DNA from: Stegostoma tigrinum
Lineage: Eukaryota
Assembly (NCBI RefSeq): GCF_030684315.1
Contig: NC_081391.1
Location: forward strand, 13,741,342-13,805,341
DNA: 64,000 bases
Direction of reading: 5' to 3'
The notes under the pieces are model-generated. The model was not told the origin of the DNA, ran no database searches, and saw only the letters and a list, made by a program, of their open reading frames with translations. Below, piece after piece: positions 7,681 to 55,100 of the stretch (within the stretch, counting starts at the first letter, position 1; every line of letters starts with the position of its first letter). The position numbers and the translations under genes were made by a program.

Positions 7681-7760
7681 GAGGTTGTTCAGCCCATTTA
7701 GTTTGCACTGATCCTCTGAAGAGGTTGTTCAGCCCATTTAGTCTGCACTGATCCTCTGAA
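7681..7760. repeat. Direct tandem duplication, 2 x 40 bp
   Basis: GAGGTTGTTCAGCCCATTTAGT(T/C)TGCACTGATCCTCTGAA occurs twice. The same duplication is at ~48318-48398. Confidence 0.9.
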
Positions 7761-7799
7761 CAGCATCTTGTTCAGACACACCCTGCCTTCTTACGCCAT

Positions 7800-7960
7800 C
7801 TTTCCCACGGCCAGTCCAAAATAAACTGCATGTCTTTGGACTGTGGGAAGAGGCCCACACAGGCACGGGGAGGATGTGCAGCCTCCACACGTGACTGAAA
7901 TTGACCCCAGGTCCCTGGCACTATGAGGCAGTAATGCTGACCATTAAAATACCCTGCCAT
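7800..7960 (-). mobile_element. Degenerate HE1-like SINE, reverse orientation
   Basis: CTTTGGACTGTGGGA...ATTGACCCCAGGTCCCTGGCACTATGAGGCAGTAATGCTGACCA is the reverse complement of a SINE tRNA head. Homologues at ~17340-17520, ~23745-23995, ~31170-31350, ~48440-48600 and ~58030-58282. Confidence 0.55.
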
Positions 7961-8089
7961 CCAAAAGTTACAAAAAACAGGAACACTCTGTTGCATAGAA
8001 TTAGAGTGAATGACTCGTTTCTCACGGAAACAGACCCTTCGGTCCTACCTGTCCATGCTGACCAGATTTCCCAACCTGACATAGTCCCA

Positions 8090-8281
8090 AGATAATAAAA
8101 TGTGAGGCTGGATGAACACAGCAGGCCAAGCAGCATCTCAGGAGCACAAAATCAGAGACGAAGGGTCTAGGCCCGAAACGTCAGCTTTTGTGCTCCTGAG
8201 ATGCTGCTTGACCTGCTGTGTTCATCCAGCCTCACATGTTATTATCTTGGAATTCTCCAGCATCTGCAGTTCCCATTATCA
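8090..8281. mobile_element. Short palindromic Penelope-derived non-autonomous element with ~14-bp TSD and a degenerate hammerhead core
   Basis: ~60-bp inverted arms (ATAATAAAATGTGAGGCTGGATGAACACAGCAGGCCAAGCAGCATCTCAGGAGCACAAAA and its reverse complement). TSD CTGACATAGTCCCA 8076-8089 / CTGACATTGTCCCA 8282-8295. Absent at the paralogous site ~48715. Confidence 0.85.
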
Positions 8282-8954
8282 CTGACATTGTCCCACTTGT
8301 CTGCCTTTGGCCCATATCCTTCTAAACCATTCCTTTCCATGCAAATCTCCAAATGTCATTTAAATGTTGTAATTCTAACTACCTCCACCACTGTCTCTGA
8401 CAGCTCGTTCTAACAATGCACACCACCTTCTGTATGAAAATGTTGCCCCTCATGTCCCCATCAAATCTTACCCCTCTCCCCTCAAACCGATGCCCTCTAA
8501 TTTTGGACCCCACCTGACCCTATCACAGCATGCTTTTTATATACAGTCAATCTTGAGTGTGCCAATGGCAAGGCTACATTTAGTGCTCAGCAACTGTTAC
8601 ACTTCAGGAGATGGTGATGAGCTGCTTATTGCAGTCCACCTGGTGTCGGAGAGACCGGAATGATGCTGCTGCTGTTGCTGAGGAGGGGCTTCTGGGATCT
8701 TCACTCACAAACACTGATATTATTCCAAGTCAGGATGGTGATGGATTTACTTGGAGCTGCTTCAGTGTCACTGGGGCGGCATTGAGCTGGAAAATTGCAA
8801 ACTACTCCAGCATTATTCCCAACTTCAGTCTTATCGATGGTGAACAGACTCTGGAAAGTCTGAAGTAGAGTTATTCACAACAGAATTCCCAGACTCTGAC
8901 TTGGTCTCAAAGCCATGAGCACATGAATTAGGATTGACCTCTGCCCATGGTTTC

Positions 8955-10350
8955 TTAGAAAATAGAACCTAGAACAGTGCAGCACAGTTCACGCCCTTCA
9001 GCCCACGATGTTGTTTCGAACTTTTATCCTAAACCCAAGGACGATCTCACCTCCACTACCTTATATCCATCTGCTTATCTAATAGCCGCTTAAAATCCCC
9101 TAACGAGGCCGACTCCACTGCACTCTCCGGCAATGCATTCCACGCCCCAGCCACTCTCTGAGTAAAGAACCTACCTCTGACATCCACCCTATATCTACCT
9201 CCACTCACTTCAAAACTATGCCCCCTCATAATAGCTAACTCCATCCTAGGAAAAAGTCTCTGGCTGTCATATCTGCCTATACTTATGATCATTTTGTACA
9301 CCTCTATCAAGTCACCTCTCATCCTTTGTTCTGAAGAGAAAAGCACTCGTTCTCTCAACCTTTCTTCGTAAGACCTTCCCTCCATTCCAAGCAACATCCT
9401 GGTAAATCTCCTCTGCACCTTTTCTAACACTTCCACATCTTTCCTGGAATGAGGTGACCAGAACTGGACACAATACTCCAGATGTGGCCGAACCAGGCTT
9501 TTGTATAGCTGGAGCATAACTTCACAGCTCTTGAAATCAATCCCTCTATGAATGAAAGCTAACACACCACATGCCTTCTTGACAACTCTATCCACCTGAC
9601 TGGCAGCTTTCAGGGAACTGTGGACATGAACCCCGAGATCCATCTGCTCCTCCACACTGCCAAGAATCTTTCCGTTAACCCTGTATTCTGCTTTAAAATT
9701 TGTCCTTCCAAAAGGAATCACTTCACGCTTTTCAGGGTTAAACTCTGTCTGCCACTTCTTAGCCCCGCTCGGCATCCTATCAATGTCCTTTTGTAACCTG
9801 GAACAGCCGTCCACACTATCCACAAGTCAAATCACCTTCGTATCTTCCAAAAACTTACTAATCCGCCATTCCACTCCTACATCCAAATCATTTACCAAAA
9901 TCGTAAATAGAAGAGGACCCTGAACAGACCCTTGAGGTACACCACTCGTAACTGAGCGCCATGTTGAATATTTTCAGTCAACTGTCACCCATGTCTTCTA
10001 TGGGTCAGCCAATTCTGAATCCAATCTGTCTCATTTCCCCCGTCACATGCCTCCTGACTTTCTGCATGAGCCTGCCATGGGGAACCTTATCAAACGCCTT
10101 ACTTCAATCCATGTATCCCACATTCACTGATCTACCTTCATCCACACGTTTGGTCATCCCTTCAAAGAATTCAATCAGATTTGTGAGGCATGATGTACGC
10201 CTCACAAATCCACACTGGCCATCACAAATCATACTGTGCCTATCCAAGTGATCATTAATTCTGTTTCTTACAGCCCTTCCCATTAATTTGCCAACCACTG
10301 ACATAAGACTAGCTGGCCTGTAATTTCCAGGGTTACCCCATTCCCTTTTT
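8955..10350 (-). mobile_element. CR1-clade LINE, 5'-truncated, reverse orientation
   Basis: Minus-strand ORFs 10104-10385 (NPGNYRPASL...SCLTNLIEFFE) and 9056-9823 (LVRPHLEYCVQFWSPH...). Boundaries approximate. Confidence 0.92.
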
Positions 10351-11421: not shown

Positions 11422-14400
11422 ATGGCCTCCCAGATCAGTCAGAACTATCACCAGGATTGTGAAGCTGCTGTCAACAAGCAGGTTAATGTGGAGCTCACTG
11501 CCTCCTATCTCTATCAGTCTTTGGTGAGTTTTGTCTTGATGGAGTTGAAATTAAATCTATTCTGCAAAAATGAGCTGATCCTCTTGTTTCTAATTAACTT
11601 CATAGTCTTGTAGATTTGAGGAGTTTAAGTTTGCACCTTGAAAAATCATTTTGGGATAAATGTAATGCCCTTTGGTGACAATGGATTTTGATATTGATGT
11701 GCAGTATCTAATTCACCAGCTGGGATTGAGTGATAGATGGAGGGCAAATTGTTCTGTCAATTATTTTACAATTTACTGCCAGGTCTCTGCCTGGTGGTAA
11801 CTGTCGTTTTCCTCCCCAGAATTGACCAAACTTTACTAAAATTAGATGTAATGGTGTTGGGAGTTGTAGGCACCCCTTGGCTAGTCATCCTGTAACATTT
11901 TAATTTACCTTGATCACACTTAATTTGTGCTCTGATCCTAAATACACATGCCAGTTTCCATTCTGTGATGGAGAATGATGGCAGTGACTGGCTTCTCTGA
12001 GCATATGCAGTTGTAACTTGCATTGAGGAGGCCTCAGATGTGGACTAGTTGGCTTTCTGCATTCTCAGTTCATGAATGGACTGTTAGTGGCCAGGAAGTC
12101 ACTTGTTGTCCATTCCTCCAATAGATCAATACCCTCCTGTGAGTGCATGCACAGGGTGTCTGGAATAACCTGAGATCTTCACTTCACCAAAAAAGGTGAA
12201 GAATTGGAGTTTCAAATTCCCACGGTATGGGAAATAGTGCCTTTCTCCAGGGAGCACTGTGCCTATGGCCTCTCAAAATGGCAGGCTATAATGGTTTGTA
12301 AATGTTGAAGCAGCTTTTGAAGGCTGCTAGATACCTGGTAGATAGTGGACACTGGGAGTGCATTCACTCACTCCCTTCAATGAGGTGGGCTGCTCTGTCC
12401 TGCATAGTGTCTACTTTGTGCATGTTGCAGCTCCACTTCTTGGGAAAAAGGGAGAATATTCATCCCTCCATGGGGCTTATGTCTGAGAAGCATTCTCTTC
12501 CCACTCTGAGGATGAAATCCCTGTACCCTTCCCTTTAGCAGGTGGGAACAGCTATCACCAATAAGCCTGTTGGGTCTTAACTGTTAGTGGTGTCCCATAT
12601 CAATTGGGCAGCATGTGCCCAAACAACCTACTATTGTATATCTGTGAGATGCAGCTACCCGAGAAAAGCCAGAGAAATTTACATGACTGTTTTTTGACAA
12701 AAGAAACTTCTCAGCCTGATCAGTTGGAACTAGATAACCTGCTCTAACAAGGTGTAGAGCTGGATGAACACAGCAGGCCAAGCACCATCAGGGGGAGCAG
12801 GAAGGCTGATGTTTTGGGCCTGGACCCTTGAGAAATGGGGAGGGGAAGGGGTCCCTGAAATAGGAAGGGGTGGGGAGGTGAATGGATGAGGGATAAAGAA
12901 ACAGGTGGTGAGGAGACTCCAGTCTGAGGTAAGGATGGAGCCAATCAAGTCAAGTGAGTTGAGTAGGCCTGTCCGTGGGGATGGGATTTGAGGTGGCGGG
13001 GGTCGGCGGGAGGTGGGGTGGTGTGGGGAAGTAGGTGGGAGGAAGGACGGACCAGTCGGGGAGGTGGGAACTAGCTGAGCTGTGATTGGGGGAAGGGAGA
13101 TCTTTCAGCTTAAGTCCTCACTGATACCATTGGGCTGCAGGGTTCCCAAGCAGAATACAAGGTGCTGTTCCTGCAACCTTTGGGTGGCATTGGAGGCCCA
13201 GAATGAACATCAACTGTCCCCTCCTGCCCCTCTGAAGGGGAAGTAGTTTGTGACTGGGAGGTGCAGCTGCTGGTCACGAGCCCAGCATAGGCACTCCACA
13301 AAGTGGTGTCAAGCCTCTGCTCGGATTTCCTGATGTAGAGGAGGCCACATTAGGAGCAGTGGATACAGCATACCTAACTGCAGGTGTGTAGGTCCACTTC
13401 ATCTTGATGTGGAAGGTCTTGGGGCCTGGGATGAGGGGAGGTGTAGCACAATCTGTGTGGCAGGAAAAAAGCCCTGGCTAGTGGAATGTACAAGGGAATC
13501 AGTGGTCTCTCCAGAAGGCAGCTAAGGTTGGAGAGGTAAAACATGTCTTTGTCAGATTGTAGATTGTATAAGTGCCAGAGGATGATGCACTGGGTCCTGG
13601 CATTGAGGTGGTACTGAAGGATGAGAGGATTCTGTTTTGGTTGTGTGAGGGATAAGATGCAAGACCGGTTGTGTTTTTCTTCCACTAAAGGGAAGTTACG
13701 CTCCCTCGGAAAACGAGGACATCTGGGATGCCCAGGAGTAGAATGCCTCCCCTCGGGGCTGGAGGTGAAGGAATTGGATTAGGGGATGGCGTTTTCCTTC
13801 CACAGGAAGGTGGGTAAGGTGTATTCTAGGTAGCTGTAGGAGTCAGTAGGTTTGAAATATATCAAAGATTGATAGACAAACTTAAGGTTGAGGTAGAAGG
13901 CTCTAATGAATTAGAGGAACCGTTCAAGCTCCTTTGTGGGATGTAATGGAGGAAGATGTGGAGTTTATGGCCCATCTCCCTGTAGAAGGATTGTTCCACA
14001 AATCCTAACAGAAGCAGGCACAGCCTGGGCCCATGCACGTGCCTATGGCCACCCCCTTCCTCTGTAGGAGGTGGGAGGAATTGAAGGAGAAGTTAGGGGT
14101 GAGGATGAGTTGGCTAGTGGACAAGGTTGTTGGTGAATGGGGACCAGTCAGACCTGCAGGATGAGAGAAGCAGAGGGCCTTCGGCTATCTCCATGGGGAA
14201 TGGATGAGGTTGGAGGCTGTGGGTGGGAGGTCATCTCCAGTGAAGTTGTAAATGGACTAGGAGATGGTTTGGTGGTCAGGGGTGGAGTCATGATGAAGGG
14301 CGGGGTGGTAGGAGGTATCGGCTGCTCTTCCACACAAGTATATGTGGCACTCCAGCTCCTGGCATTTCCTTAAACCCTGTTCAGTCACGAACTTCATCCA

Positions 14401-17583: not shown

Positions 17584-20500
17584 ATGAGTTCCCAGATCAG
17601 TCAGAACTATCACCGGGATTGTGAAGCTGCTGTCAAAAGGCAGATTAATGTGGAGCTCACTGCCTCCGATCTCAATCACTCTTTGGTGAGTGCTGTCCCT
17701 GTGGGGTTAAAACTTGATCTATGTAGTTGAAGTAAATGTTTTCTCTTGAATTTAATTAACTGGACCCTCTCTCTTTGTAGATTGAGTTTTGTAGTCCTTT
17801 CCTAAATATTAATTCAGGATAAGGGCAATGTTACTGTACCAATGGGGTTTGATAATGATGTACTCTGAAGCTGGGTCCCAGTTGGCCTTCAGAGATATGT
17901 GGAGGATGAAGTGTCCCTGGAGAAATTTGCCAGTTTGGTGTTTGAATTGGCAGTAGATGTCATTCCCTCTAAGATTACCAAATGTTGGTAGGGTTACTTC
18001 AGAAAGGTATTATATTGATCATACTGTGGGACTAGAATCACCCACTGGCTAGTTACCCTCTTTCTGACAGGTTTAAGTATCTGATTTTATATTTGCTTGC
18101 TTTTGTGGTGATACTTAAATATCAATTCTGATATTGACAATGATAATTCCCTATTGCAGTCTGCTGTGGCTAATCTGAGCAAACCTACTTGAGGTTAGGC
18201 TGAGTGTGACTGGTATCTGACTTTTTAAAGTAGATCTCAGCTGAGGCCTGCTTGGCATTTTGCACTCCCATCATGAGATGGGTGTGGCCTATCCCTGAAC
18301 CTGTAGAAAGTTGATCTGCTTTAGTGTGTGGCGTGTTGAAGCTTCTGCAAACCATGTTTGCCTCCTGCCCCCTCACCCACACCCTGCATCCCCTCTAGCT
18401 GCTGGAGTCTGAGATTCATGGTCCAGTCTCTATGCCATCCTGATAGGGAACAAACTGTCCCCTTTAGCCAGGTGGCAGTGAACCTGTAACTTTCCAATGG
18501 GTAGAATGTTTCAGACAGTAGGAACAGCAGATGCTGGAGAATCTGAGATAACAAGGTGTAGAGCTGAATGAACACAGCAGGCCAAGCAGCATCAGAGGAG
18601 CAGGAAGGCTGATGTCTTGGGGCATGACCCTTCTGAAGGTGGGCCTAGGCCCAAAACAGCAGCCTTCCTGCTCCTCTGCTTGGCCTGATGTTTTCATCCA
18701 GCTCTACATCATCGTATCTCAAGGGGTAGAATGTGTTTGGAAGGTGTGTGTTGAAGTAACCTTGGTGAGTGCTGCAGGGGACCTGGTAGATAATGGACCC
18801 TGAAAGGAGGTGGTGAATGCAGTCCCCATGAAGTGGGCTGCTCTGTCCTGGATGGTGTCTGCATCTTGAATGTTGCAGCTCCACTTCCACAGACACATGG
18901 AGAATCTTCTTCACTCTCAGCTTTTGTCTGTTAGAAAGAAGATGTCTCATGACAGATGGATGAAGCCCGTATAAACTCCATTTGGGAGGTGGGTACAGCT
19001 TTCATTGGTGAGCCAGTTGACGGGTTTTAATTACTGACCAGGGTCCCATTTCCCTTGGGGAACACGTGTGCCAATTATAAAATCCTTCCTATTCTCTCCT
19101 GCCACAGCTTGTCCCTACCCCGTTAAACAGACAAGAAATTTTGTTTGACTGCTTCTACATGAAGACAATAACTTCCCACCAGGCTTCCTCGACAACAAAA
19201 CTCTTAGCTCCTGTTTCAAATATCAGAAGAATAGCCCTTCATAAACCTCAAGGCATTGGATTGTGAATATCTCGGTTCGGAAGTGAGTCACATATGGGTG
19301 GACAAACAACAGAACGGTGCCAGCTGGGATAAGCCAAACTTTGTTGTCCAGCTTTGTGTTAACTAGTGACGTTAGATCAGCCATTATCTGTAGATACAGG
19401 TCACATTGGTTCTTTCTCTCCAATATTTGACCTTCCCTCAGTTTGATTCAATTTGTTTTGTTCATGTGACCCTTGTTCTCCCCCTTCTGGATGTGAGTGC
19501 ACTAATTTTAGTGTGCTATAAACTATAACTGCAACAATCCAGAGGCAGTTACTGGGTAGGTTTTCCTTTGCACTATCTTGTTGTCGCTTTCTCTCATTCG
19601 CCTCTATTATATCTTGTAGTCATAAAATATACCGTACATTCAATCTCCCTGGTTTTGAGGCCACAGAAACCTTGCTTCCTCCTGGTTATATTGTTACAGC
19701 AGTGTCTAACATGTATTTCCATGCCAGCCCCAAAGGAGCAATAGTGTTACAGCTCCCCTACTCAAGTATAGCCTGCACTCCAGCTCCTGGTGCTTGTTTC
19801 AGCTGTTTGTTTGGCACTAATATTGTCCAATTCGAATGAAGGTTAGTGAGTGCAAACATGGCTGGATACAAGAAGAGCTATAATGCTGTGCCAGGCAGCC
19901 TGAGCAATTTACTGTTTGTTTTAAGCCAAACTTTTGCCAGTTTCCAACAGGAAATTGGGATTGTTCTGTTTGATCCCAGTTGAAGGATCTGCTGGACAGC
20001 TGGACATCATTGGGTTCTCAAACATGTTCACATACCAGGCAGTTAGTTTGCTGCAGAAGGCTGAACTAGAATTTGGAGTCAGTGCTGTGTTTAATGGGCT
20101 TTAACATGTTATCTCCCTTCCAGATGTCCTACTTTGACCGGGATGATGTGGCCCTCCCCCACTTCTCCAGGTTCTTCAAAGATCAGTCCCGGGAGAAGCA
20201 GGAACATGCAGAGAAGCTGCTGAAATTCCAGAATCAGCGTGGAGGCCGAGTCCTCCTCCAGGATGTGAAGGTTGGAGTTGGGTGGGAGGGTTGCAGCTGT
20301 GGAGGAGAGAATGGCAGCTCTTGTGGTGCTGCGTCCTGTTGGGATGTGAAAATCCTCTTTTGGCATGGCTTCCCTGTTTGATTTCTTTTGAAGGCAGTTT
20401 CTAAACAAGCCCTATTGTCCACCATGTCTATGCTGCCCACAAACATCAAACTAGATTAACACAATTTCCTGCACTTAGTCCACAGCCGACTATCTTCTGG

Positions 20501-24523: not shown

Positions 24524-27500
24524 ATGGCCTCCCAGATCAGTCAGAACTATCACCAGGATTGTGAAGCTGCTGTCAACAAGCAGATTAATGTGGAGCTCAC
24601 TGCCTCCTATCTCTATCAGTCTTTGGTGAGTGCTGTCCCTGTGGGGTTGGAGTTACTTCTGTTATGAAGTGAACTGTTTTTTTTTAAAACAAACTAGATT
24701 AATACTCTTGTATAATAAAATGTGAGGCTGGATGAACACAGCAGGCCAAGCAGCATCTCAGGAGCACACGTTTAGCTTTTGTGCTCCTGAGATGCTGCTT
24801 GGCCTGCTGTGTTCATCCAGCCTCACATTTTATTATCTTGGAATTCTCCAGCATCTGCAGTTCCCATTATCTTTAACACTCTTGTAGACTTGTTTGTTTT
24901 TTTTTTTGTATCTCTCTTAGCTATTTCTTGATTCAGCGTAAATGTGGTGACAATGGGATATGATACTGATATGCAGCAACTGAGGCCCCAGTTGTCTCAA
25001 TGATATATGGAGGGTGAAGCATCTTGTGATTTATCTTAAAATTCCTTTTTGGGCTGTGATTGCCTATAACTGGCTGTGGCTCTCCATAATTTTCTAAACT
25101 ACTGTCAAGCTTTGATCCAGATAACCATTGGCTAACTACCTTTTTAAATCTGCCTTGATGTATCTGCTTTAGTTTTGTGCATGTAAATAAACAAACATAC
25201 TGGTTTTGGTATTTACAATAAGGTGTTGTAGTAATTTGACAAATCAGATTTTTTTAAGCTGAACTGAAGTCCTTGAGGTAAGACAAGCTGCTCCCTGCTT
25301 AAGTAGGTCTCCGATATTATTTTGGCTTTCTGTGCTCTATATCATGAAGTGGGTTTGATCCATCACTTCACAACCTATAGAAAGTTGACTTGTTATAGGT
25401 GCCTGCCCCCCCCGACCCCCCCGCCCCCAAAAGGGGGCTGCTGGAACATGCTGAGGCTATTGACCCAGAGGTGAAGAAATAAATGTTCTTCCTTTACCAT
25501 TTAACCAGATAAAGAAACAAACTGGCTCCTCCCACCATGTGGTGGTGCCCCTGTGCCCTTCCAAGGAGTAGAATGTGTTCAGAAGGTGTTGAGGTCCCCT
25601 TGGTGAGTGCTGCAGGGGACCTGGTAGATAATGGACCCTGAAAGGAGGTGGTGAATGCAGTCCCCACGAAGTGGGCTGCTCTGTCCTGGATGGTGTCTGC
25701 TTCTTGCACGTTGCAGCTCCACTTTTCTCCAGACACATGGAGAATATTCATCACTCTCTGGGCTTGTGCCTATTGGAAGGAAGTCCTATCTAGGGACATG
25801 AGGATAAAGTCCCTATAACTACCTTTTTGGGAGGTGGGAATAGCTTTAACTAGTGAACCAATTGTTGGGTTTTAGTCACTGACCACTGTCCCAACTCAAT
25901 AGGGAATCTTGTGTGCTGATAATAAAATCCCCACTATTCTTCACCTTCTACAACTTAACTACCCAATTAAACCACTTTTTTAAACTTTTAGTTTGTATTT
26001 GAGGATTAAACTAACTTCTCACCAGGATTCTACCAAAGAACAACTTCTTCTTTTGATGTCAATAGACTGTTCCTAATCAGCAGTAACTTGTTGGATTGTG
26101 AATCTCAGTTGAAAAGTGAGTGAAATGAGTGGGGAAAACAATAGTTTAGCCTCTTGGAATAAGCTAAATTGAGCTCTCCAGCTTTGAACAAGTCAATAAT
26201 CTATAGGTCACACAGTCCTGCAGATACCATTAGGTCTCCTGAACATTTGATCTTGTTTCAGTTGTGAATTTTAATGCTTTGCTTTGCAAGCTTCTGGCAA
26301 CCTGAGTGCATGGCATAAACAAATGTGATAAACTATTGCTGCAACAAGCCAAAGGCTGTCACTGGGCAGGCTCTCCTTTAGCACCAAGATTCTCCTAATC
26401 GCCCTCATTCTCCTGCATACTGCAAACAGCATCTCTTGTAGAGCTGCTTTATGTAAAAAAAAATACAGTACATCTGATCCAATTGGTTGCAGAAGACCTG
26501 TACCTACCAGCTATATTAATGTCCAGCATCTGCATGTTACTCTAGCACCAGGGGAGACATGTAATGACTGGAAGTTGCCTGACCCTGTGCACATCCTGCA
26601 TTCCAGCTCCTGGCACTTGTTTAAACCCTATTCAGTTACCACTTCCATCCATTTCTGGAGGCTAGATGGTAGAAATGTGCTTTCAGCTTTTCTCTCCAGG
26701 CTGTGCCAGACACCCCCCCCCCCCAAACAATTCAGCAGGGTTTACAAACCAAAACACTGAATTTGCATCTTACGTGGAAGAAGCTGGGGTTGTTTGGTTT
26801 CCTCCAATTAAAGGAGCTGCTGGCTAATTTTGCAACACCATTAGTGAACATTGTAAGGTGTCAACAATTTTCAGCTGATTGAATCATTAGTTTGCTTTAG
26901 ACTAAACCAGTCCTCCAGTTCTGAGCATGAGAAATGGGGTCAATGATGTGTTTAATGGGCTTTAACATGTTATCTCCCTTCTAGATGTCCTACTTTGACC
27001 GGGATGATGTTGCCCTCACCCATGTCTCCCGGTTCTTCAAAGATCAGTCCCAGGAGAAGCAGGAACATGCAGAGAAGCTGCTGAAATTCCAGAATCAGCG
27101 TGGAGGCAGAGTCCTCCTCCAGGATGTGAAGGTTGGAGTTTGGGAGGGGGGCATGGTGTGGTGTGCAGGAATGGTAGCTCATGGTGTTTTCTGTTAGTAG
27201 TGACAAGATTTTAATGTGGTAAAGGATGTGAAGGTTGGAGTTGGAGAAGGCAGGCAGTGGGGAGGAGATGTGAGAAATGGCTGCTTATGGTGTGGTTTCA
27301 TGTCCTGAAAGAAAGTGAAAACTGTTTTGTTTGGCTCCCCTCCTTTTGATGAAAAGGAAAGAAATCCTAGAAACACGCCTCTTGGCTCCCCTCCACCTGC
27401 TGCTTCTCCACCCCCCCCACCCCCGCCCCCCCACACCACCCCACCCCATGCTGACCCGATAAACACCAAACCACATTAATCCCATTTACTGCACTTGGTC

Positions 27501-29387
27501 TACAGCCCCCATGGCATTGGTAGTTGTCTAGAAGCTGCTTAAATATTGCAGCAGGAGATGCCTCCCCCACTGCCCCACCCCCCCCATATTATTTTTCCAC
27601 TACCCTCTGGGCAAAGGATTCCTCTAACCTGCTGACTCCTCACATCAGTGCCCTCTGGTCTTAATGTCTCTTTCTCCCCACCCCCTCATAGCAGACACTC
27701 CCCATCTACTATCAAGACTCCACACTAATCAAATGCCATCACATAAACATCTCAACTGACTTCACTCTGAGGATTGGAGTGAGAAATCTAATCTCTCCTT
27801 TTAATGGATTTTTCAGTCTTGGGGCAACATCCTGGTGACCCTTCCAGTGCCATTGTGGCTCTGGTCACCACACAGTATTCCACCTTTGCATGGCCAATGC
27901 TGCAAAGTTTGTGACAAGACTGGAGTCCCTGTACTGCGCCCCAAGAAATGGGGAAGGGCATTGTGGAAGCCAACTTCCCCACCCTGTCTACACTTATGGA
28001 TCCTTGAAATATCTCTAGTCTTGTTCTCTTGGTTCCTTTTATTGTCAACATATTGCTGTCCCTTCAATGAATTAAATAGTAGTGATGCTTTTGATCATTC
28101 AGGTCAGTCCGAGATGAAGCCATAAGCACAAGTGGGACTTCAACCTGGGCCTATGCTCCAAACCTAGGGACAGTACCACTGCTTAACGAGCCCTGGGATT
28201 AAGTTGTGAATATCTTCCTTGGGATGCCATCAGATGGGCACTGACAATTCTGTGCAAACATAACTCTTATCCCCACTATGACCTGGTTGTGAATTGACTC
28301 TCCTTTCGGAAGAAGCAAATAGGGCTAGGTGAAAGCAATTCCTTAAATAACTGATCTGTTCTTCCTAAGGACTTCAGGGATGGCGGTGGTTAGCACAACT
28401 GCATCAGTGCTTGGGGCACAAGCTTAATTCTGGAGTTGACATGTTCACCACATCTCTACATAGGCTTCCTCCCACAGTCCAAAGATGTGCAGGGTAGGAT
28501 AGGGCATGAAAAATGCAGGATTACATGGCTGGGGCTAGGACCAGGTTGGATGCTCTTCAGATGGTCATGAGTGGGCAGAATGGCCTGATGCATGCTGCAG
28601 GGATGTTGTTTCTGAGGCTTACCTGTCCTTCTTTCCATCCTCAGAAGCCAGAGAGGGATGAGTGGGCAACAGTCTGCAGGCGCTGCAGGTTGCCCTGGAT
28701 CTGGAGAAGAATGTGAACCAGAGTTTGCTGGATCTACACCAACTCTCCACGGCCCAGACTGACCCTCATGTAAGCTTCACCACTTCATTCTCATCACTGC
28801 GAGACCCTCAGGGTAACACTTCATTGGTTGGTCTGTGTGGATTGGAAATTCACAGGTGTGCACTGATCACTTTGGGTCCATGCTGCTGAGCAGTTGTTAC
28901 ATGGTGATCAGTAATGAAGTGAAATGGGAGTTTGGAAGGCAATCCATTGGGAGTGATGAAGTGATATTGGCCATTGAATTCCCATTCTCACTTGGGAGCA
29001 TTACAGTGGAATGATCATTGTCCATCACCATCCAACTCAGCTCCACTTCACAAGCAGCAAGATGGAGCAGCTGAAATCCTATTGTCATCACCGACACAGA
29101 TTTTCCAGGTGTTAGCTAAATTTTCAGGGCTGTCTGGAACTAGTATGGTAAAGCCTGTTTTTTTCAGTGGGAATTCTGAAATTGTCTTGGATAGTGTTAA
29201 TGCACCCAGTTGTCATATTCCTCTGTTGCAGCTGTGTGACTTCCTGGAGAATCACTATTTGGATGAGGAGGTGGAGATCATCAAGCAACTCGGGGACTAC
29301 ATCACCAACCTGAAGCGCCTGGGAGCCCCTGAGAATGGGATGGGAGAATACCTGTTTGACAGGCTCTCCCTGGAGGACAGCAGTTAG
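24524..29387 (+). pseudogene. Ferritin copy D; 1-bp deletion frameshift in exon 3
   Basis: Exons 24524-24625, 26985-27131, 28645-28769 (125 nt instead of 126), 29232-29387. GAGTGGGCAAC replaces GAGTGGGGTAAC, giving [23 protein letters not shown] (stop 28714-28716). Confidence 0.85.
24713..24872. mobile_element. Short palindromic Penelope-derived element with 14-bp TSD in intron 1 of copy D (central ribozyme region deleted)
   Basis: Near-perfect inverted arms. TSD TTAATACTCTTGTA 24699-24712 / TTAACACTCTTGTA 24873-24886. The site is empty in D' at ~60057-60070. Confidence 0.87.
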
Positions 29388-30153
29388 TGTGGCCTGGAGT
29401 ACTGTCTGCTTGGTCTGAATGCATTCCCCACTTCACCCTGGACAACCTGTCTCCTTCCAAGGAGAAGGGACTTTTGTAGCAAAGAATGTAATGGCTGTAC
29501 CAGCTAAATGGAAATGAATAAAATGATGTGTTGATCTTGCTTATTGTCCATCATTCAGAGCTCTGAATACTTTGGGTGATAGCTCTTGCTTGAAGCCAAT
29601 TCGTTTTCTGTCATTTGATTGGTCCAATTTCTAATTGGATTAGGCAACCCTTCACAGAATAGCTCACTATCCCCACATTAGAATGTAACTCGATGGAGTG
29701 TTTTTTTTGGTTAGTCCTGTGGAAATTGAAGGTGTTTCTCCTCCAAATAGGATAAGGTTGGAATTTGTCAATTGTGGCATTGGCTTTCTTCTAGAGGACA
29801 ATTAGTGCACTTCTGGAGATGGTGGGTTCAACTGTAGCTCAAAGCAATTGTCTTCCTCTGGTGACAGGAAGTTCCCACACCTTCTAAATAGACTTCTCTA
29901 CCCAGCCTGATAGAATTTGGGATAGTGGTGTTCAATTGCACATTTCCCTTAATCTCTTCCCCGCCTCAGCCATCCTGCGTACTCAATTATTGCCTGAATG
30001 ATGACAGCAACACAAAGTGAAGACAGCCCTTTATCTACTGACCCAGCTGCCTGATCACCAAGGTCTAAAGGAAGAGGCCCAGCAGGCTCTGATTTCAATC
30101 CAGCTGGCGGAAGCAGCAGAGGTGTGAAACAATCTCAACTGCCTGGTATATCT

Positions 30154-30338
30154 GAGATAATGGGAACTGCAGATGCTGGAGATTCCAAGATAATAAAATG
30201 TGAGGCTGGATGAACACAGCAGGCCAAGCAGCATCTCAGGAGCACAGGCTCTGATGAAGGGTCTAGGCCCGAAACGTCAGCTTTTGTGCTCCTGAGATGC
30301 TGCTTGGCCTGCTGTGTTCATCCAGCCTCACATTTTAT
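30154..30338. mobile_element. Short palindromic Penelope-derived element with perfect 14-bp TSD
   Basis: TSD TGCCTGGTATATCT at 30140-30153 and 30339-30352. Inverted arms flank CTGATGAAGGGTCTAGGCCCGAAACGTC. Confidence 0.88.
30241..30290 (+). ncRNA. Putative minimal type I hammerhead ribozyme (Penelope type)
   Basis: Stem I GGCU, CUGAUGA (30251-30257), extra A, stem II GGGU(CUAG)GCCC, GAAA, C GUC (predicted cleavage after 30278), then AGCU. Helix III is reduced to the palindrome ACGU, as in PLE hammerheads. Confidence 0.65.
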
Positions 30339-32645
30339 TGCCTGGTATATCTCTTCTTTTTTTTTTTCCCCCCATTGGGCCCTACCCTGACCAATAAACA
30401 CTATATTCTCAGTATTGTTACTTTTGGTTTCACCATCCCAAACTGTGGCTGGAGCTCTTTCTCTTCCGCTTCTCCCCACTTCGCTCACCCCGCCCTCCCC
30501 CCACCCGACCTTTTCTATCCACGTGCCCCACCAGCCTAAACATTCACCACAGCCCCTTTCCCTGGGAGTCAGCTCAAGACGTTCACCTGAACTGTACTGG
30601 ATTATAATGTAGGGCCTCATTGCTGCTTACAGCAGGATAACAGGGACCTGGGAAGAACACAGCAATGCACTTGGTTAAATGCTGCTGTTTGATTGGCTCT
30701 TGTTGCTAATGCCAGCATTGAGCACACTAAGCTGCTCCCTTGGTTCCTCTGAGCTTTCCCCCATGGTGAACATTACTCCTGATGCAGGTTGATTGGGTGA
30801 AATCACATTGAAGGAGCAAAGTGGCTCGGAGAGGAGACATGGAGATGCTGACTTTCCTTTACGGCTGCTTCTTTTATCTTTCAAGGTGTCAGAGATCATG
30901 GGTTCGTGAGGGTGCGATCTGAGACATCCTGAGGATTGTTCCAGGGAGTTTTGTAGCGGGTGTACACTGCAGCCTTCATCGAGGTTGGCGGGGGGGGTGC
31001 TGCAGAGTCAAAAGGCACTCAACATATTTGTTCCAACCTCATAAAGCAATTTATTTTTGGTGAAAATAAGTCTAGGCTACAGTAACCCTCAAGTGCAGGA
31101 AGGGACCATTAGGCCCATTAAATCTGCATAGACCTTCTGAACAGCATCCTCCTTAGACCCAACCCCTTTGCCTTAACTCCACATTCCCCATGGTTATTCG
31201 ACCAAGCCTGCATGCCCCTGCTCACTATCGACAATCTGCAAATCGTCGGGCTGTGTGAGGAAACTCAAGCACCTGGAGGAAATCCACGCAGTCCATCGCC
31301 CAGGGGTAGAATCGAACCTGGGTCCCTGGCACTGAGCCGCCAAAACATTCTAAAGTACCAAAGGAAAGGAATACACTGCGGCAAACTACGCCATGGGAAT
31401 AGACTCTGCAGCGCAGCCCGAACTTGCAGACCAGGTTTTCATAAACTGTGTAGTGCCATTTGCCTACGTTTGGCCCATCTTTCTCTAAACCGTTCCTTTC
31501 CATGTAAATCTCCAAATGTCACTTAAATGTTGTAATTCTATCCACCTCTACCACTTCCTCTGGCAGCTCATTCCATACACGCAACACCCTCTGTGTGACA
31601 ATGTTGTCACTCACGCCCCTTTTAAATCTTGCCCCTCTCCCCTCAAACCGGTGCCCTCTAGTTTTGGAACCCCCCTACCCTGTCCCAGCATGCTTTTTAT
31701 ATACAGTCAATCTTGAGTGTGCCAATGGCAAGGCTACATTTAGTGCTCAGCAACTGTTACACTCCAGGAGGTGGTGATGAGCTGCTTATTACAGTCCACC
31801 TGGTGTCGGAGAGACCGGAATGATGCTGCTGCTGCTGCTGTTGCTGAGGAGGGGCTCCTGGGATTTTCATTCACAAACAGGGATAGTGTTCCAAGTCAGG
31901 ATGGTGACAGAGTTACATGGAGCTGCTTGAGTGTCGTTGGTGCTGCCTCCAGCGAGAACATTGTAAACTAATTCCAGCACTACTCCCAACTTCAGCCTTA
32001 TTGAGGGTGGGCAGGTTTTGGAAACTCAGGAGTTGAGTACTTCCTGACAGAATTCCCAGCATCTGAATTCCCAGTTTCTGAGCTGTACCATCGAGAGAAC
32101 GCAATGTAAACTGAACCAGAAATTCTTCACTTGGAAACATGCTGGGGTGAATCACTAGTTCTACTTCAAACAACGAAAACGAAACTGGGAGACAGAAATG
32201 TTCAACGTGCGATACATTTCTAGCAGCAACTGAGGCATAGAGGCCTGAGGCCTACTGTGTAGAAGAGGCACTCAGCACATTTAGCGTTTTGCTTTTCAAA
32301 CTGGGCTTCAAGGTCAAGGTCAGGGAGATCACATCAGATGCAGAATGGATCCACAAAGTACATCAGTTGCCTGTTTTAGATGATCCAAAAGCACATTATT
32401 TCTGTTGCTGCACAGAAATAGGAAAATGTTCAGATCAACCAAATCGAGCCATTTTTCAAAGAGCTCCAACACCAACGTTCAAAAATTATTACGACTAATC
32501 CCTCAGAATAGCAATCCGACAGAATTCTGCAAATCTGTGATGAATGTGTCTTAACGCACAACCTCAGATAGAAAAGTGAAGTTTTAGAGTATATTTTATT
32601 CTCATTTTCAGGGAGATGTCCTTCCAGAATTTGCACTTGTGCGGG

Positions 32646-38073: not shown

Positions 38074-40599
38074 TGTGGCCTGGAGTACTGTCTGCTTGTC
38101 TGAATGCATTCCCCACTTCACCCTGGCCAATCTGTCTCTCTCCAGGGAGAAAGGACTTTGAGCAAAGAATGTAATGGCTGTACCAGCCGAATGGAAATGA
38201 ATAAAATGATCTCTTGTTCTCAGTTACTGTGCATCATTTTGAGACCACTGATACCTCTTTGGTCAAGCAAGCTTTCTTGCCTCACTTCACCACTGCTTTT
38301 CCCCAAACCCCTGTGGACAGACTCCAGGCCTATGGGAGCCAGTTGGGGTTCAAATGGGGCCTGTGACCGACCCTGATGACAACCATCAACTAGTGGCCCT
38401 GCTGACCAGTTCACTTTGTCACTGAAGTCTGCTGCTCCTCCCAGGGGACCTTGGGTTTTCTAAACTTTCTTGGTTCACTGCATAGATTTGTTTTTCCCCC
38501 AGAAGGAATCCAAAATTCCTTCAAGTGGCTTCCTCAGTTTGTTGCTTTCTTTCCTCCGCCCAGGGCTCAAGCCCTCCCCATAACTGGAAGTCCACCAGCC
38601 CTGAGCTGGGGGAAATTCAGCCCAAACATTCTGAACAGTCACATTCCAGAGAATCATCTCCAGATTCTCTGGGGCTACTTGATTGATAGTGGATGCTCTT
38701 TATACCATAAATACAAGGATTGGTGACCTGGGGCTTGGATGATTGCCCATGGTTCAAAATACTCACATTTGGTTTATGCTTGCAGCTACAACTGGCCTCT
38801 GACTGTTGAAGGGTTTGTACAAAAAGCTTCTACCTTGGTTCTTGGAACCTTTCCATGGGCTGATGAAATTTTTTTTGACCCAGTGAGGGAGCAGGGATTT
38901 CTGGGGAAGATGGGGGCTGTCTCCTTCAGTCAAGATGCCTGGACATGCTGATTTTCCTGTACAGCTGTTTCCTTGATCATTCAAGGTGTCTGATCATGGG
39001 TTAGGGAGGGGGTGATCAGAGACAGCCCGGAGATTATCTTGAGTTTTGGCACAAGTGCACACTGTAGCCTTAGGAAGAGTGTGGGTCATTAAGGTACTGA
39101 ATAGATTTGTTCCATCACAAAAATCCTTGTTGTTTGGCCCAGTCTCTATCCTTGGTGATAGAATCCCTGCTCTCTGGCAAGAGGCCATTTGACCCAGGTA
39201 GCATCAACCTTCTGACCAGAATCCTGCTCAGTCCCACCCCAGTCCTTTAACCCTGTGTCTTCCCCATGGCTAATCCAGCTTGCCCCTTGTCAATATCACC
39301 AACTTAGCATTCCCTATCCACTTGACCAGCAAATAGTTCAGATGGTGGGTGGGAAACCAAACAGACACTGTAAATGTACAAACTCCCCAGGGTGCCCTAA
39401 GGCTGTAATAAATCCCATGTCGCTGTGAGGTAAGTGTTCGCTACTGAGACACTGTCTGACCCGAAAGTACCGAACAAAGGAATATGCTGTTGCATACTGT
39501 CAGAGTCCTACAGCAGAGATACAGGTTGTTTGGCTCAAACCGTCCAGGTCGAGCAGTGTTCCAAATCTGAACTAGTTGTGTTTGCCCCATATCCCTCAAC
39601 CAGTCCTTTCCCTGGAAATCACCAAATGTCTTTTAACAACTGCAATTGCACCTACTTCTCGTGCTTTATGTAGCCACTCATTCTTGACATAAACCATTTT
39701 CTGTGGGGCAAAGCTGTTCTTCAGCTTCCCTCCCTCTCCACCCCCCTTCCCCCCCCCCCCCAAACACCACATGCCTGTGTGTGAAAACATTACCCCTACC
39801 ACCCCTAGTTTTGGACTCCACGACCCTGTCCCAGCATGCTTACTGTATGCAGTCAATCGTGAGTCTGCCAAGGGCAAGGCCACATTTAGTGCTCAGCAAG
39901 TGTTACACTTCAGGAGGTGGTGATGAGCTGGTCATTACAGTCCCCCTGGTGTAGGAGAGACCGGAATGATAATGCTGCCGAGGAAGGGCTTCTGGGATTT
40001 TCATTCGCAAACAGGAATATTTTCCCAAGTCAGGATGGTGACAGACTTAAATGGAGCTCCATTGCGTGTTGTTGGTGCTGCCTCCAGCCAGAACATTGAA
40101 AACTGTTCCAGCATTACTCACTCCGAACTTCAGTCTTATTGATGGTGGACCGGCTTTGGAAAGTTAGAAGTTGTGTAATCACAACAGAATTCCCTGCCTC
40201 TGACTTCCCAATTTTTGAGTTGTTCACTCTACAGAATGCAATGAAAACTGTAACAGATACTGTCACCTTGGAAACATGCTGGCGTTAAGCGCTGATTCAA
40301 CTTCAACAATGAAAAACCAAACATGGAGACAGAAATGTTCAACGTGCGATACGTTTCTAGCAGCACCTGAGACACAGAACCCTGCGGCCTACTGTGTATA
40401 AGAGGCACTCAGCACATTTAGCATCTTGCTTTTCAAACTGGGCTTCATGCGACCCTAAGTCACGCTGATCACAGCAGATTCAGAATGGATCTACAAAGGA
40501 CATCGGTTGCCTGTATCAGACGATCCAAAAGCACGTTATTCTGTTGCTGCACAGAAATAGGAAAATGTTCATATCAACCAAATCAGGGCATTTTACAAA

Positions 40600-42032
40600 G
40601 ATGAGGATTGCAAATGTGGTTCCCCTGTGCAAGAAGGGGAGTAGAGACAACCCTGGTAATTGTAGACCAGTCAGCCTTACCTCAGTTGTTGGGAAAGTGT
40701 TGAAAAAGGTTATAAGGGATAGGATTTATAATTATCTAGAAAAGAATAAATTGGTTAGGGATAGTCAGCACGGTTTTGTGAAGGGAAGGTCGTGCCTCAC
40801 AAACCTTATTGAGTTCTTTCAGAAGGTGAGCAAACAGGTATTTGAGAGTAAACCGGTTGATGTGGTGCATATGGATTTCAGCAAGTCGTTCGATTAGGTT
40901 CGCCACAGTAGGCTATTGTACAAAATGCGGAGGAATGGAATTGTGGGAGATATAGCAGTTTGGATCGGAAATTGGCTTGCTGAAAGAAGACAGAGGGTGG
41001 TAGTTGATGGGAAATGTTCATCCTGGAGACCAGTTACTAGTGGTGTACTGCAAGGGTCGGTGTTGGGTCCACTGCTGTTTGTCATTTTTATAAATGACCT
41101 GGATGAGTTTGTAGAAGGATGGGTTAGTAAATTTGCAGACGACACTAAGGTCAGTGGAGTTGTGGACAGTGACGAAGGATGCTGTAGGTCGCAGAGAGAC
41201 ATAGATAAGCTGCAGAGCTGGGCTGAGAAGTGGCAAATGGAGTTTAATGCAGACAGGTGTGAGGTGATGCACTTTTGTAGGAGTAACTGGAAGGCAAAGT
41301 ACAGGGCTAATGGTAAGATTCTTGGTGGTGTAGATGAGCAGAGAGATCTCGGTGTCCATGTACACAGATCCTTGAAAGTTGCCACCCAGGTTGACAGGGT
41401 GGTTGAGAAGGCATACAATGTTTTGGCTTTTATTAATAGAGGGATTGAGTTCCAGAACCAAGAGGTTATGGCGAAGCTGTACAAAACTCTGGTTAGGCCG
41501 CACTTGGAGTATTGTGTACAGTTCTGGTCACCCCATTATAAGAAGGATGTAGAAGCTTTGGAAAGGGTGCAGAGGAGATTTACTAGGATGTTGCCTGGTA
41601 TGGAGGGAAGGTCTTAAGAGGAAATGCTGAGGGACTTGAGGCTGTTTTCATTCGAGAGAAGAAGGCTGAGAGGTGACTTAATTGAAACATATGAAATAAT
41701 TAGAGGGTTGGATAAGGAGAGCCTTTTTCCTAGGATGGTGACAGCGAGCACGAGGGGGCATTGCTTTAAATTGAGGTGTGAACGATATAGGACAGATTTC
41801 AGAGGTAGTTTCTCTACTCAGAGTAGTGAGGGAATGGAACGCTTTGCCTGCAACGGTCGTAGATTCGCCAACTTTAGGTACATTTGAGTCGTCATTGGAC
41901 GAGCATCTGGACGTACATGGAATAGTGTAGGTTAGATGGGCTTCATATCGGTATGACTGGTCGGCACAACATCGAGGGCCGAAGGGCCTGTACTGTGCTG
42001 TAATGTTCTATGTTTTATGTTCTATATTCTAT
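40600..42032 (+). mobile_element. CR1-clade LINE, 5'-truncated (paralogue of 1-1333)
   Basis: ORFs 40544-40897, 40916-41617 and 41624-41887 with RT motifs ([25 protein letters not shown]). TTCTATG-type tail. Inserted in the conserved upstream motif CATTTTTCAAA|GAGCTCCAAC that is uninterrupted at ~32450-32470. Confidence 0.93.
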
Positions 42033-49387: not shown

Positions 49388-50792
49388 TTAGAAAATAGAA
49401 CCTAGAACAGTGCAGCACAGTTCAGGCCCTTCAGCCCACGATGTTGTTTCGAACTTTTATCCTAAACCCAAGGCCTATCTCACCTCCACTACCTTATACT
49501 TATCATCCATATGTTTATCTAATAGCCGCTTAATTGCCCCTAACGAGGCCGACTCCACGACACTCTCTGGCAATGCATTCCACGCCCCAGCCACTCTCTG
49601 AGTAAAGAATCTACCTCTGACATCCACCCTATATCTACCTCCACTCACTTCAAAACTATGCCCCCTCATAATAGCTAACTCCATCCTAGGAAAAAGTCCC
49701 TGGCTGTCTAATCTGCCTATACTTATGATCATTTTGTACACCTCTATCAAGTCACCTCTCATCCTTTGTTCTGAAGAGAAAAGCCCTCGTTCTCTCAACC
49801 TTTCCTCCAAAGACCTTCCCTCCATTCCAAGCAACATTCTGGTAAATCTCCTCTGCACCTTTTCTAACACTTCCACATCTTTCCTGGAATGAGGTGACCA
49901 GAACTGGACACAATACTCCAGATGTGGCCGAACCAGGCTTTTGTATAGCTGGAGCATAACTTCACAGCTCTTGAAATCAATCCCTCTATTAATGAAAGCT
50001 AACACACCACATGCCTTCTTAACAACTCTATCCACCTGACTGGCAGCTTTCAGGGAACTGTGGACATGAACCCCGAGATCCATCTGCTCCTCCACACTGC
50101 CAAGAATCTTTCCGTTAACCCTGTATTCTGCTTTCAAATTTGTCCTTCCAAAATGAATCACTTCACGCTTTTCAGGGTTAAACTCCGTCTGCCACTTCTC
50201 AGCCCCACTCAGTACCCTATCAATGTCCTTTTGTAACCTAGAACAGCACTCCACACTATCCACAAGTCAAATCACCTTCGTATCTTCCAAAAACTTACTA
50301 ATCCGCCATTCCACTCCTGCATCCAAATCATTTACCAATATCATAAATAAAAGAGGACCCCGAACAGACCCTTGAGGTACACCACTCGTAACTGAGCGCC
50401 ATGTTGAATATTTTCAGTCAACTGTCACCCATGTCTTCTATGGGTCAGCCAATTCTGAATCCAATCTGCCACGTTTCCCCTGTCGCATGCCTCCTGACTT
50501 TCTGCCCGAGCCTGCCATGGGGAACCTTATCAAACGCCTTACTTCAATCCATGTATCCCACATTCACTGATCTACCTTCATCCACACGTTTGGTCATCCC
50601 TTCAAAGAATTCAATCAGATTTGTGAGGCATGATGTACGCCTCACAAATCCGCACTGGCCATCACAAATCATACTGTGCCCATCCAAGTGATCATTAATT
50701 CTGTTTCTTACAGCCCTTCCCATTAATTTGCCCACCACTGGCATAAGACTAGCTGGCCTGTAATTTCCAGGGTTACCCCATTCCCTTTTTTG
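49388..50792 (-). mobile_element. CR1-clade LINE, reverse orientation (paralogue of 8955-10350)
   Basis: Minus-strand ORFs 49475-50263 and 50544-50825 with CR1 RT motifs. Confidence 0.92.
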
Positions 50793-52175: not shown

Positions 52176-55100
52176 CTGGCCTCCCAGATCAGTCAGAACT
52201 ATCACCAGGATTGTGAAGCTGCTGTCAACAAGCAGATTAATGTGGAGCTCACTGCCTCCTATCTCTATCAGTCTTTGGTGAGTGCTGTCTTGATGGAGTT
52301 GAAATTAAATCTATTCTGCAAATATGAGCTGATCCTCTTGTTTCTAATTAACTTCATAGTCTTGTAGATTTGAGGTGTTCAAGTTCTTAGCTTAAAAATC
52401 ATTTTGGGATAAATGTGATGCCCTTTGGTAACAATGGATTTTGATATTGATGTAGAATAACTAATTCACCAGCTGGGATTGAGTGATAGATGGAGGGCAA
52501 ATTGTTCTGTCAATTATTTTACAATTTACTGCCAGGCCTTTGCCTGGTGGTAACTGTCTATTTTCTCCCCAGAATTGACCAACCTTTACTAAAAATAGAT
52601 GTAATGGTTTTGGGAGTTGTAGGCACCCCTTGGCTAGTCATCCTGAAACATTTTAATATACCTTGATCACACTTTATTTGTCCTCTGATCCTAAATAAAC
52701 ATCATGCCAGTTTCCATTCTGTGATGGAGAATGATGGTGGTGACTGGCTTCTGAGCGTATTCACTTGTAATTTGCATTGAGGAGGCCTCAGATGTGGACT
52801 AGTTGGCTTTCTGCCTTCTCCATTCACGAATGGACTGTTAGTGGTCAGGAAGTCACTTGTTGTCCATTCCTCCAACAGATCAATGCTCTCCTGTGAGTGC
52901 ATGCACAGGGTGTCTAGAATAACCTGAGGTTTTTATTTCAATAAATATGAAGAAATGGGAAATGGCCCCTTTCTCCACGTAGTACTGTGCCCATGCCCTT
53001 CCAAAATGGAAGGATGTAATGGTTTGGAAATGTTGAAGCAGATTTTGAAGGCTGCTGGGTACCTAGTAGGTAGTGGACACCAGGAGTGCATTCACTCACT
53101 CCCTTCAATGAGGTGGGCTGCTCTATCCTGCACAGTGTCTACTTTGTGCATGTTGCAGCTCCACTTCTTGGGACAAGGGGACAATATTTATCCCTTGTGG
53201 GGCTTATCACTGAGAAGCCATCTCTTCCCACTCTTTCAGGATGAAATCCCTGTACCCTTCCCTTTAGCAGGTGGGAACAGCTATCACCAATAAGCCTTTT
53301 GGGTCTTAACTGTCAGTGGTGTCCCTCATCAATTGGGCAGCATGTGCCCAAACAACCCACTATCCTCCATCTGTAAGATGCAGCTACCCAAGTTAAGCCA
53401 GAGAAATTTACACAACTGTTTTTTGACAAAAGAAGCTTCTTAGCCTGATCAGTAGGAACTAGATAACCTGCTTTAACAAGGTGTCAAGCTGGATGAACAC
53501 AGCAGGCCAAGCAGCATCAGGGAAGCTGATGTTTTGGGCCTGGACCCTTCAGAAATGGGGAGGGGAATGGGTCCCTGACATAGGAAGGGGTGGGGAGGTG
53601 GATGGATGAGGGATAAAGAAACAGATGGTGAGGAGACAGAGGTCTGAGGTGAGGATAGGGCCAAAAAGGCCAAATGAGTTGGGTAGGCTTGTCCAGGGAG
53701 GTGGGGATGGGTTTTGAGGTAGGGGTGGTGTGGGGAAGTAGGTGGGAGGAAGGATGGACAAGCTAGGGAGGTGGGGACCAGCTGGGCTGTGATTGGGGGC
53801 AGGGAGATCTTTCAGCTTAAGTCCTCACTGATACCATTGGGCTGCAGGGTTCCCAAGCAGAATACAAGGTGCTGTTCCTGCAACCTTTGGGTGGCATTGG
53901 AGGCCCAGAATGGACATCAACTGTCCCCTCCTGCTCCTCTGAAGGGGAAGTAGTTTGTGACTGGGAGGTGCAGCTGCCAGTCATGAGCCAAGCATGGGTG
54001 CTCCACAAAGTGGAGTCAAGCCTCTGCTCGGCTTTCCTGATGTAGAGAAGGCCACATTAGGAACAGTGGATACAGTATACATCACTGCAGATGTGTAGGT
54101 GAACATCTGCTTGATGTGGAAGGTCTTGGGCCCTGGGATGGGGGGGGAGGTGTAGCACTATCTGTGTGGCAGTTAAAGCCCTGGCTGGAGGGGCTAGTGG
54201 AATGGACAAGGAATCAGTGGTCTCTCCAGAAGGCAGCTAAGGTTGGGGAGGTAAAAAATGTCTTGGCCAGATCGCAGATGGTCGAAGTGCCAGAGGATGA
54301 TGCATTGGATCCAGGCATTGAGGCGGTACTGAAGGATGAGAGGATTCTGTTTTGGTTGTGTGCGGGATAAGTTGCAAGACGCTGTTGTGTTTTTCTTCAA
54401 CTGAAGGTAAGTTACACTTCATTGGAAAATGAGGACATCTGGGATGCCCAGGAGTAGAATGCCTCCCCTCAGGGCTGGAGGTGAAGGAATTGGATTAGGA
54501 GATGGCACTTTCCTTCCACAGGAAGGTGGGTGAGGTGTATTCTAGGTAGCTGTAGGAGTCAGTAGGTTAGAAATATATCCAAGGATATATCGAAGATTGA
54601 TAGATCAACTTAAGGTTGAGGTAGAAGGTTCTAATGAATTAGAGGAACTGTTCAAGCTCTTTGTGGGATGTAATAGAGGAAGATGTGGAGTTTATGGCCC
54701 ATCTCGCTGTAGAAGGATTGTTCCACATATCCTACCAAGAAGCAGGCACAGCTTGTACCTATGGCCACCCCCTTCCTCTGTAGGAGTTGGGAGGAATTGA
54801 AGGAGAAGTTGGGGGTGAGGATGAGTTTGCTAGGTGGACAAGGTTGTTGGTGAACAGGGACCAGTCAGGCCTGCAGGACGAGAGAAGCAGAGGGAATTAG
54901 GCCATCTCCATGGGGAATGGATGAGGTTGGAGGCTGTGGGTGGGAGGTAACCTCCAGTGAGGTTGTGGATGGACTAGGAGATGGTTTGGTGGTCAGCGGT
55001 GGAGTCATGATCAAGGTGGGTAGGTGGTAGGAGGCATCGGCTGCTCTTCCACACAACTACATGTGGCACTCCAGCTCCTGGCATTTCCTTTAAACCCTGT

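Follow-up and report, generated by a model that had tools for sequence, protein, structure and literature searches.

Results

The window, by which we mean the whole stretch of 64,000 nucleotides analysed here (1-64000), consists of a tandem array of about eight units of 6-10 kb, and seven near-identical ferritin last exons, middle-subunit-like, are distributed within this array. The ferritin last exon that forms the context of the present locus lies on the forward strand at 29265..29522; it was named as ferritin by a PDB search, and Pfam, run on two ferritin-containing frames, gave no matches. Frames of non-LTR reverse transcriptases, which we take to be CR1-like, are found in both orientations at 307-959, 9056-9990, 40469-41649 and 49475-50430. 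The region of the window recurs at least four times on contig C50 as near-identical segmental duplicates. On the same strand as ferritin and about 0.7 kb beyond its poly(A) signal, for which the AATAAA at 29517 was confirmed, a minimal type I hammerhead motif (30251..30280, forward strand) is located within a short insertion at 30154-30339, a placement already given by the initial annotation.

Inspection of the sequence showed that every letter claimed for the hammerhead core is present. The core CUGAUGA occupies 30251-30257 and is followed by an extra A at 30258, stem II (GGGU/GCCC, 4 bp) is formed by 30259-30262 and 30267-30270, GAAA by 30271-30274 and the GUC triplet by 30276-30278, the predicted cut falling between 30278 and 30279. 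The palindrome ACGU of helix III and the extra base after A9 also bear out the motif's assignment to the minimal type I hammerheads of Penelope-like elements (PLEs). As the exact 31-mer core is present in 89,060 copies in the 3.2-Gb genome by exact count and its reversed control in none, the motif is not a matter of chance; a search with Rfam over the 64-kb window returned no match reaching the gathering score.

We numbered element positions from C3 of the core, taken as 0, so that the scissile bond precedes +28. Of 30 loci selected solely by their core, 20 have CCCCUCU as the native bases ahead of it, as do 39 of 95 motif contexts, the remainder of which are varied junctions; the native stem I therefore comprises just 2 bp (CU/AG). 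Accordingly, only the CU/AG half of the stem I first described as GGCU/AGCU belongs to the element, and the GG at 30247-30248, which gives two of its four pairs, is a junction where the native bases are CT/CC. In the predicted fold CUGAUG pairs with CGUCAG, so that the hammerhead core is buried, and the hammerhead fold is predicted to be costlier than this rival pairing by 6.3 kcal/mol in the 30154-30339 copy and by 8.4 kcal/mol in the native RNA. Cofolding two monomers yielded the rival duplex rather than a double hammerhead, a result that says little on catalysis.

Preferential conservation of the core among genomic copies had been put forward as a check, and it is observed. In 88 copies found via their flanks (98 were found, 10 of which were omitted as core-selected), 5 of 880 core positions are changed versus 57 of 3,520 positions elsewhere (p=0.016); in a smaller set the changes are 2 of 520 versus 32 of 2,132 (p=0.048). 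The core is thus kept mildly better than neighbouring positions, which fits selection on the parent elements and carries no information about selection on the 30154-30339 copy itself.

The insertion is a mirror image flanked by a target-site duplication of 14 bp, the left copy of which (30140..30153) is identical to the right one (30339..30352), both on the forward strand. Its inverted arm (30154..30246, reverse strand) covers element positions +34 to +126, including a tail of about 38 nt at 30154-30191, and is separated by the non-native GG (30247..30248) from the sense arm (30249..30339, forward strand), which covers -2 to +88 and begins near the putative capped start of the transcript. The arms of about 55 bp are, as claimed, fully complementary; they had been regarded as an extension of stem I and are instead a by-product of inverted integration. 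Judging from the identity of the arms (55/55) and of the target duplication (14/14), the insertion is young, in line with the recent mobility first suggested for it.

Two sibling insertions on the forward strand, at 8076..8295 and 24699..24886, are each flanked by a 14-bp duplication of their own with one mismatch. The first has lost the start of the core at its junction, and the sense arm of the second starts from the scissile bond (24774). The cores of these copies, annotated at 8090 and 24713, are indeed incomplete, yet they were removed at the junctions of separate insertions rather than decayed. The window also contains, at 18513-18702, 12759-12829 and 53474-53551, inverted insertions of this PLE lineage that are older and diverged and whose cores have decayed.

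Contig C50 carries four near-identical copies of the 30154-30339 insertion, and their flanks match at 3,176-3,186 bases over about 3.19 kb; as these flanks are common to all four, the copies are segmental duplicates. No empty paralogous insertion site was found in the other ferritin units of the window, since the insertion flanks do not align there. Elsewhere, 25 of 26 dispersed related loci have target duplications of 12-17 bp, and junctions and centres vary among the 26, one junction being met four times, in copies whose subfamily backgrounds differ. A short arm faces a tailed one in 52 of 55 head-to-head pairs.

Among the loci picked by the core, 20 of 30 have the same pyrimidine-rich upstream DNA, and the rest are short copies, seven inverted and three solo. 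In long copies an upstream frame ends about 230 nt ahead of the core, and the frames of two of them (L040 and L059) contain YIDD, CX4CxxC and YIG motifs, the order of a reverse transcriptase followed by a C-terminal GIY-YIG endonuclease that is typical of endonuclease-bearing (EN+) PLEs. The Pfam match to GIY-YIG (E=1.6e-4, 22.3 bits) falls just under the cut-off of 22.6. The layout of the EN+ PLEs is also found, i.e., an inverted 5'-truncated copy, a one-sided tail and a target-site duplication (TSD), and the hammerhead is located in the pseudo-LTR (pLTR), as in other PLEs. The CX4CxxC motif agrees with the CX2-5CxxC linker that precedes GIY-YIG in the Neptune clade and is common to Nematis; going by this motif, on which the clade call is based, the parent is an endonuclease-bearing PLE with a Neptune/Nematis-type linker. 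A full-length parent was not found: the longest sequence read extends about 1.6 kb upstream of the core, and the N-terminal half is missing; all base-level samples are from contig C1.

The initial reading of the locus was that of a small hairpin element of the retrozyme kind, which propagates itself and carries a ribozyme able to cut the read-through RNA of ferritin. The intact core, its sense orientation about 0.7 kb past the AATAAA, a junction that by chance yields a stem I of 5 bp with a long helix to close it, and the four near-identical copies on C50 would all suit such an element, and still we consider it very unlikely. The junctions and centres vary between insertions, the PLE reading frame lies upstream in long copies, the promoter-like region is missing here, no tandem array of monomers is seen, and the C50 copies are segmental duplicates. 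A retrozyme master element was rejected. Nor does the cutting of ferritin RNA find any support: the six other ferritin 3' regions of the window fail to align at the site, and the hairpin is predicted to favour the inactive fold by the 6.3 kcal/mol given above.

Two edges stand out among the 5' ends of the copies. In 161 arms identified by a downstream anchor, 68 ends lie upstream of -49, one at -49..-6, 50 at -5..+6, four at +7..+27, 34 at +28..+48 and four beyond. The pattern for an end at -4 is passed by 4,280 ends genome-wide, and by hand count 81 of the 100 matches listed first have a G ahead of the end, the pattern excluding C; the same G is found in 9 of 13 solo loci, in two of which nine the target duplication may supply it. 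Reverse transcriptases copy the RNA cap as an extra base, and a TATTTAT sequence begins 30 nt upstream of -4. Read from these DNA ends, a capped transcript probably starts at -4. On this reading internal priming gave rise to the short copies, which would represent just the RNA's 5' stub without the promoter, and the 30154-30339 copy is likely a dead product without a promoter.

The second edge lies at the scissile bond. Counting matches with three non-native bases ahead of the position, we found genome-wide 449 ends at +27, 3,043 at +28, 394 at +29 and 472 at +30. Perfect palindromes centred on AGCT, the tetranucleotide directly behind the cut, number 709, compared with 116 for CTAG, 38 for ACGT and 23 for GGCC, the patterns differing in length and CpG content (that for CTAG being a CpG-tolerant 22-mer). 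Counted per insertion, four ends fall at +7..+27 versus 27 at +28..+48 (p=3e-5).

It is conceivable, at somewhat below an even chance, that the pile-up at +28 reflects real hammerhead cleavage of germ-line template RNA. If so, cDNAs running to the end of cleaved RNA would finish in the self-complementary AGCT, and two of them would anneal into a perfect palindrome. In favour are the 709 AGCT palindromes against 23-116 at control sites, the excess at +28 over the 394-472 ends at neighbouring positions, and the per-insertion counts. The sense arm of the 24713 copy likewise begins at the scissile bond. Tandem junctions starting at +28 were found in about 5 of 51 arms, versus 2 of 22, 0 of 20 and 0 of 21 at neighbouring positions; the +28 arms covered all but one of the 37 non-AAA matches and 15 of the 63 AAA matches among the first 100 listed, classified by eye. 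Head-to-tail junctions in which one unit starts from the exact scissile bond, as template jumping off a cut RNA end would produce, were noted at five loci (L168, L173, L175, L176 and L227).

Several observations argue against cleavage. Of the first 100 +28 matches listed, 63 read AAA|AGC and about 12 more show AGC microhomology, so that the true ends are ambiguous over +28..+32, and when ambiguous matches and four internal deletions are subtracted the excess falls to about 1.7-2 fold. Among solo copies +28 does not clearly stand out: 6 of 51 at +28 (about 180 genome-wide), 7 of 20 at +29 (about 140) and 6 of 21 at +30 (about 135), small samples classified by hand. The native stem I has no more than 2 bp, and folding predictions disfavour the active form. 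In addition, the portion of the Anolis study available to us (PMC11167929) reports that no reads ended at the cut site and that cleavage was not needed in vitro.

Alternatively, reverse transcriptase may stall at the base of the CUGAUG/CGUCAG hairpin, giving ends at G29, or just past the run of four U, and so create the +28 edge without cleavage, AGCT microhomology at the joining step funnelling the stalled ends into one palindrome. As the predicted hairpin ends at G29 and is followed by a U run, stalling is a live rival, and we regard it as possible, though with more doubt than confidence. The native RNA is predicted to form this hairpin, solo ends occur in similar numbers at +28, +29 and +30, and few ends lie inside the hairpin. 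On the other hand, ends at +30 (472, of which 7 of 21 examined are internal deletions) are not commoner than the non-palindromic ends at +28 (about 1,000). Microhomology of 4 bp as the sole cause of the AGCT palindromes was rejected, three equal 4-bp palindromes being used 6-30 times less.

Discussion

Based on our data we propose that the mirror-image insertion stems from the hammerhead-bearing end of a PLE, two short copies of which stand head to head, probably because each strand of the cut target was extended on element RNA before the cDNAs were joined. We hold this origin with considerable confidence. Transcription would start 4 nt ahead of the core, 30 nt past the TATTTAT box, and the RNA would be capped. 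The element's endonuclease would make staggered nicks 12-17 bp apart, and the RNA would be primed at about +90 for one strand and about +126 for the other. Priming so near the 5' end of the RNA would allow only some 90-130 nt to be copied, as in the 30154-30339 insertion, and the cDNA ends would be joined via microhomology or added bases. The ribozyme would be that of the parent element, cutting weakly, as a dimer or with the help of protein, and in a minority of the RNAs. Dimer cleavage was reportedly described by Lunse et al. in 2017.

Fold-back copying of one cDNA, or self-priming as in PMC3846280, also fits as the source of inverted pairs. Subfamily marks are common to both arms in 64 of 78 pairs, which suits fold-back or self-priming, and in several long pairs (L127, L054/L090, L037 and L150) the 5' ends lie 0-25 nt apart, at 100-600 nt ahead of the core, which points to a single template or a fold-back in these cases. 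Seven of the 78 pairs differ at 2-3 linked subfamily sites, three of these being tightly joined, which indicates that two templates are sometimes used. Some copies (L123, L129, L141, L175 and L176) extend up to about 180 nt beyond the tail into native sequence, and priming is therefore sometimes located further downstream.

That the genome keeps a fossil record of in vivo cleavage, in which a capped start, a nearly stemless hammerhead, a dimeric RNP and about 700 AGCT palindromes come together, is a tentative conclusion that we rate at close to, though under, an even prospect. If true, some inverted insertions would join RNAs of two subfamilies, as a double hammerhead made of two RNAs would allow. 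Our literature search, in which subscription papers and supplements were poorly covered, turned up no description of PLE copies with cap-like ends or with ends at the cut site. While the 30154-30339 locus is by itself ordinary, the value of the system resides in the end maps: some 90,000 young copies allow the 5' ends of templates, the priming sites and the junctions to be mapped at base level, and make the origin of the mirror arms testable by counting.

As far as the accessible text of PMC4209133 goes, the motif agrees with the minimal hammerheads of PLE pLTRs in most of the features tested, its short helix I being the exception. It conforms to the consensus CUGANGA / GAAA / UH and has in common with them an intact core, an extra base between 9 and 10.1, the pair G10.1-C11.1 (here G30259-C30270), a palindromic 15.2-16.2, a location in the pLTR and a prevalence of truncated copies. 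Helix I is 4-5 bp in that class and 2 bp in the native form here, and a 2-bp helix I variant is described there for Penelope of D. virilis; helix II is 4 bp here and 7-8 bp in Schistosoma. For coelacanth and Xenopus about 4,000-9,000 motifs have been reported, as against 89,060 exact copies here; the part of that literature at hand does not name sharks.

The insertions of EN+ PLEs with inverted pLTRs, as described in the available parts of PMC8557442 and PMC3846280, have in common with ours a head-to-head 5'-truncated copy, a TSD, a junction palindrome, a one-sided tail of 30-40 bp and pLTR motifs resembling a TATA box and an initiator, and the Neptune/Nematis-type linker of PMC8557442 matches the one found here. 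Our insertion differs from them in its minimal size (186 bp, no ORF) and in its TSD, 12-17 bp in this family compared with 8-10 bp in Adineta; a cap-like G and an edge at the scissile bond are not described in those parts of the two papers.

Going by the portion of Frangieh 2024 (PMC11167929) at our disposal, Poseidon of Anolis (PAc) resembles the present system in that its tail is delimited by two internal priming sites, to which the two arm ends of our insertions correspond, and in having a hammerhead just upstream of them; its predicted protein dimer and its ribozyme, active only with protein, may have counterparts here. In PAc no reads were seen to end at the cut site, at which DNA ends accumulate in our data, and its linker motif is that of another clade. 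Metazoan non-LTR retrozymes, in the text available of PMC7229834 and bioRxiv 10.64898/2026.07.22.740005, are similar in that they are non-coding, linked to PLEs and carry a type I hammerhead. They are, however, head-to-tail tandem repeats of 150-450 bp with canonical hammerheads and circular RNAs, whereas the insertions here are head-to-head, carry a minimal hammerhead and are apparently made anew from parent RNA. Neither head-to-tail tandem monomers (there is one core here) nor a fixed non-coding unit (the junctions differ) was found.

In two further hammerhead families of the fetched DNA the core is retained while stems I and II have other sequences and can still pair. Their cut sites are followed by no AGCT palindrome, and the second PLE family in particular would be well suited as a control for the edge at the scissile bond. 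One is a second PLE family (L062, L087 and L108) with a GTTACC stem II of 6 bp and a stem I of 3 bp, in which a YIG motif lies upstream in three of five near-identical loci. The other, older family (L065, L101, L107 and L136) has a GGGUC/GACCC stem II, a GUU cut triplet and a stem I of at most 4 bp.
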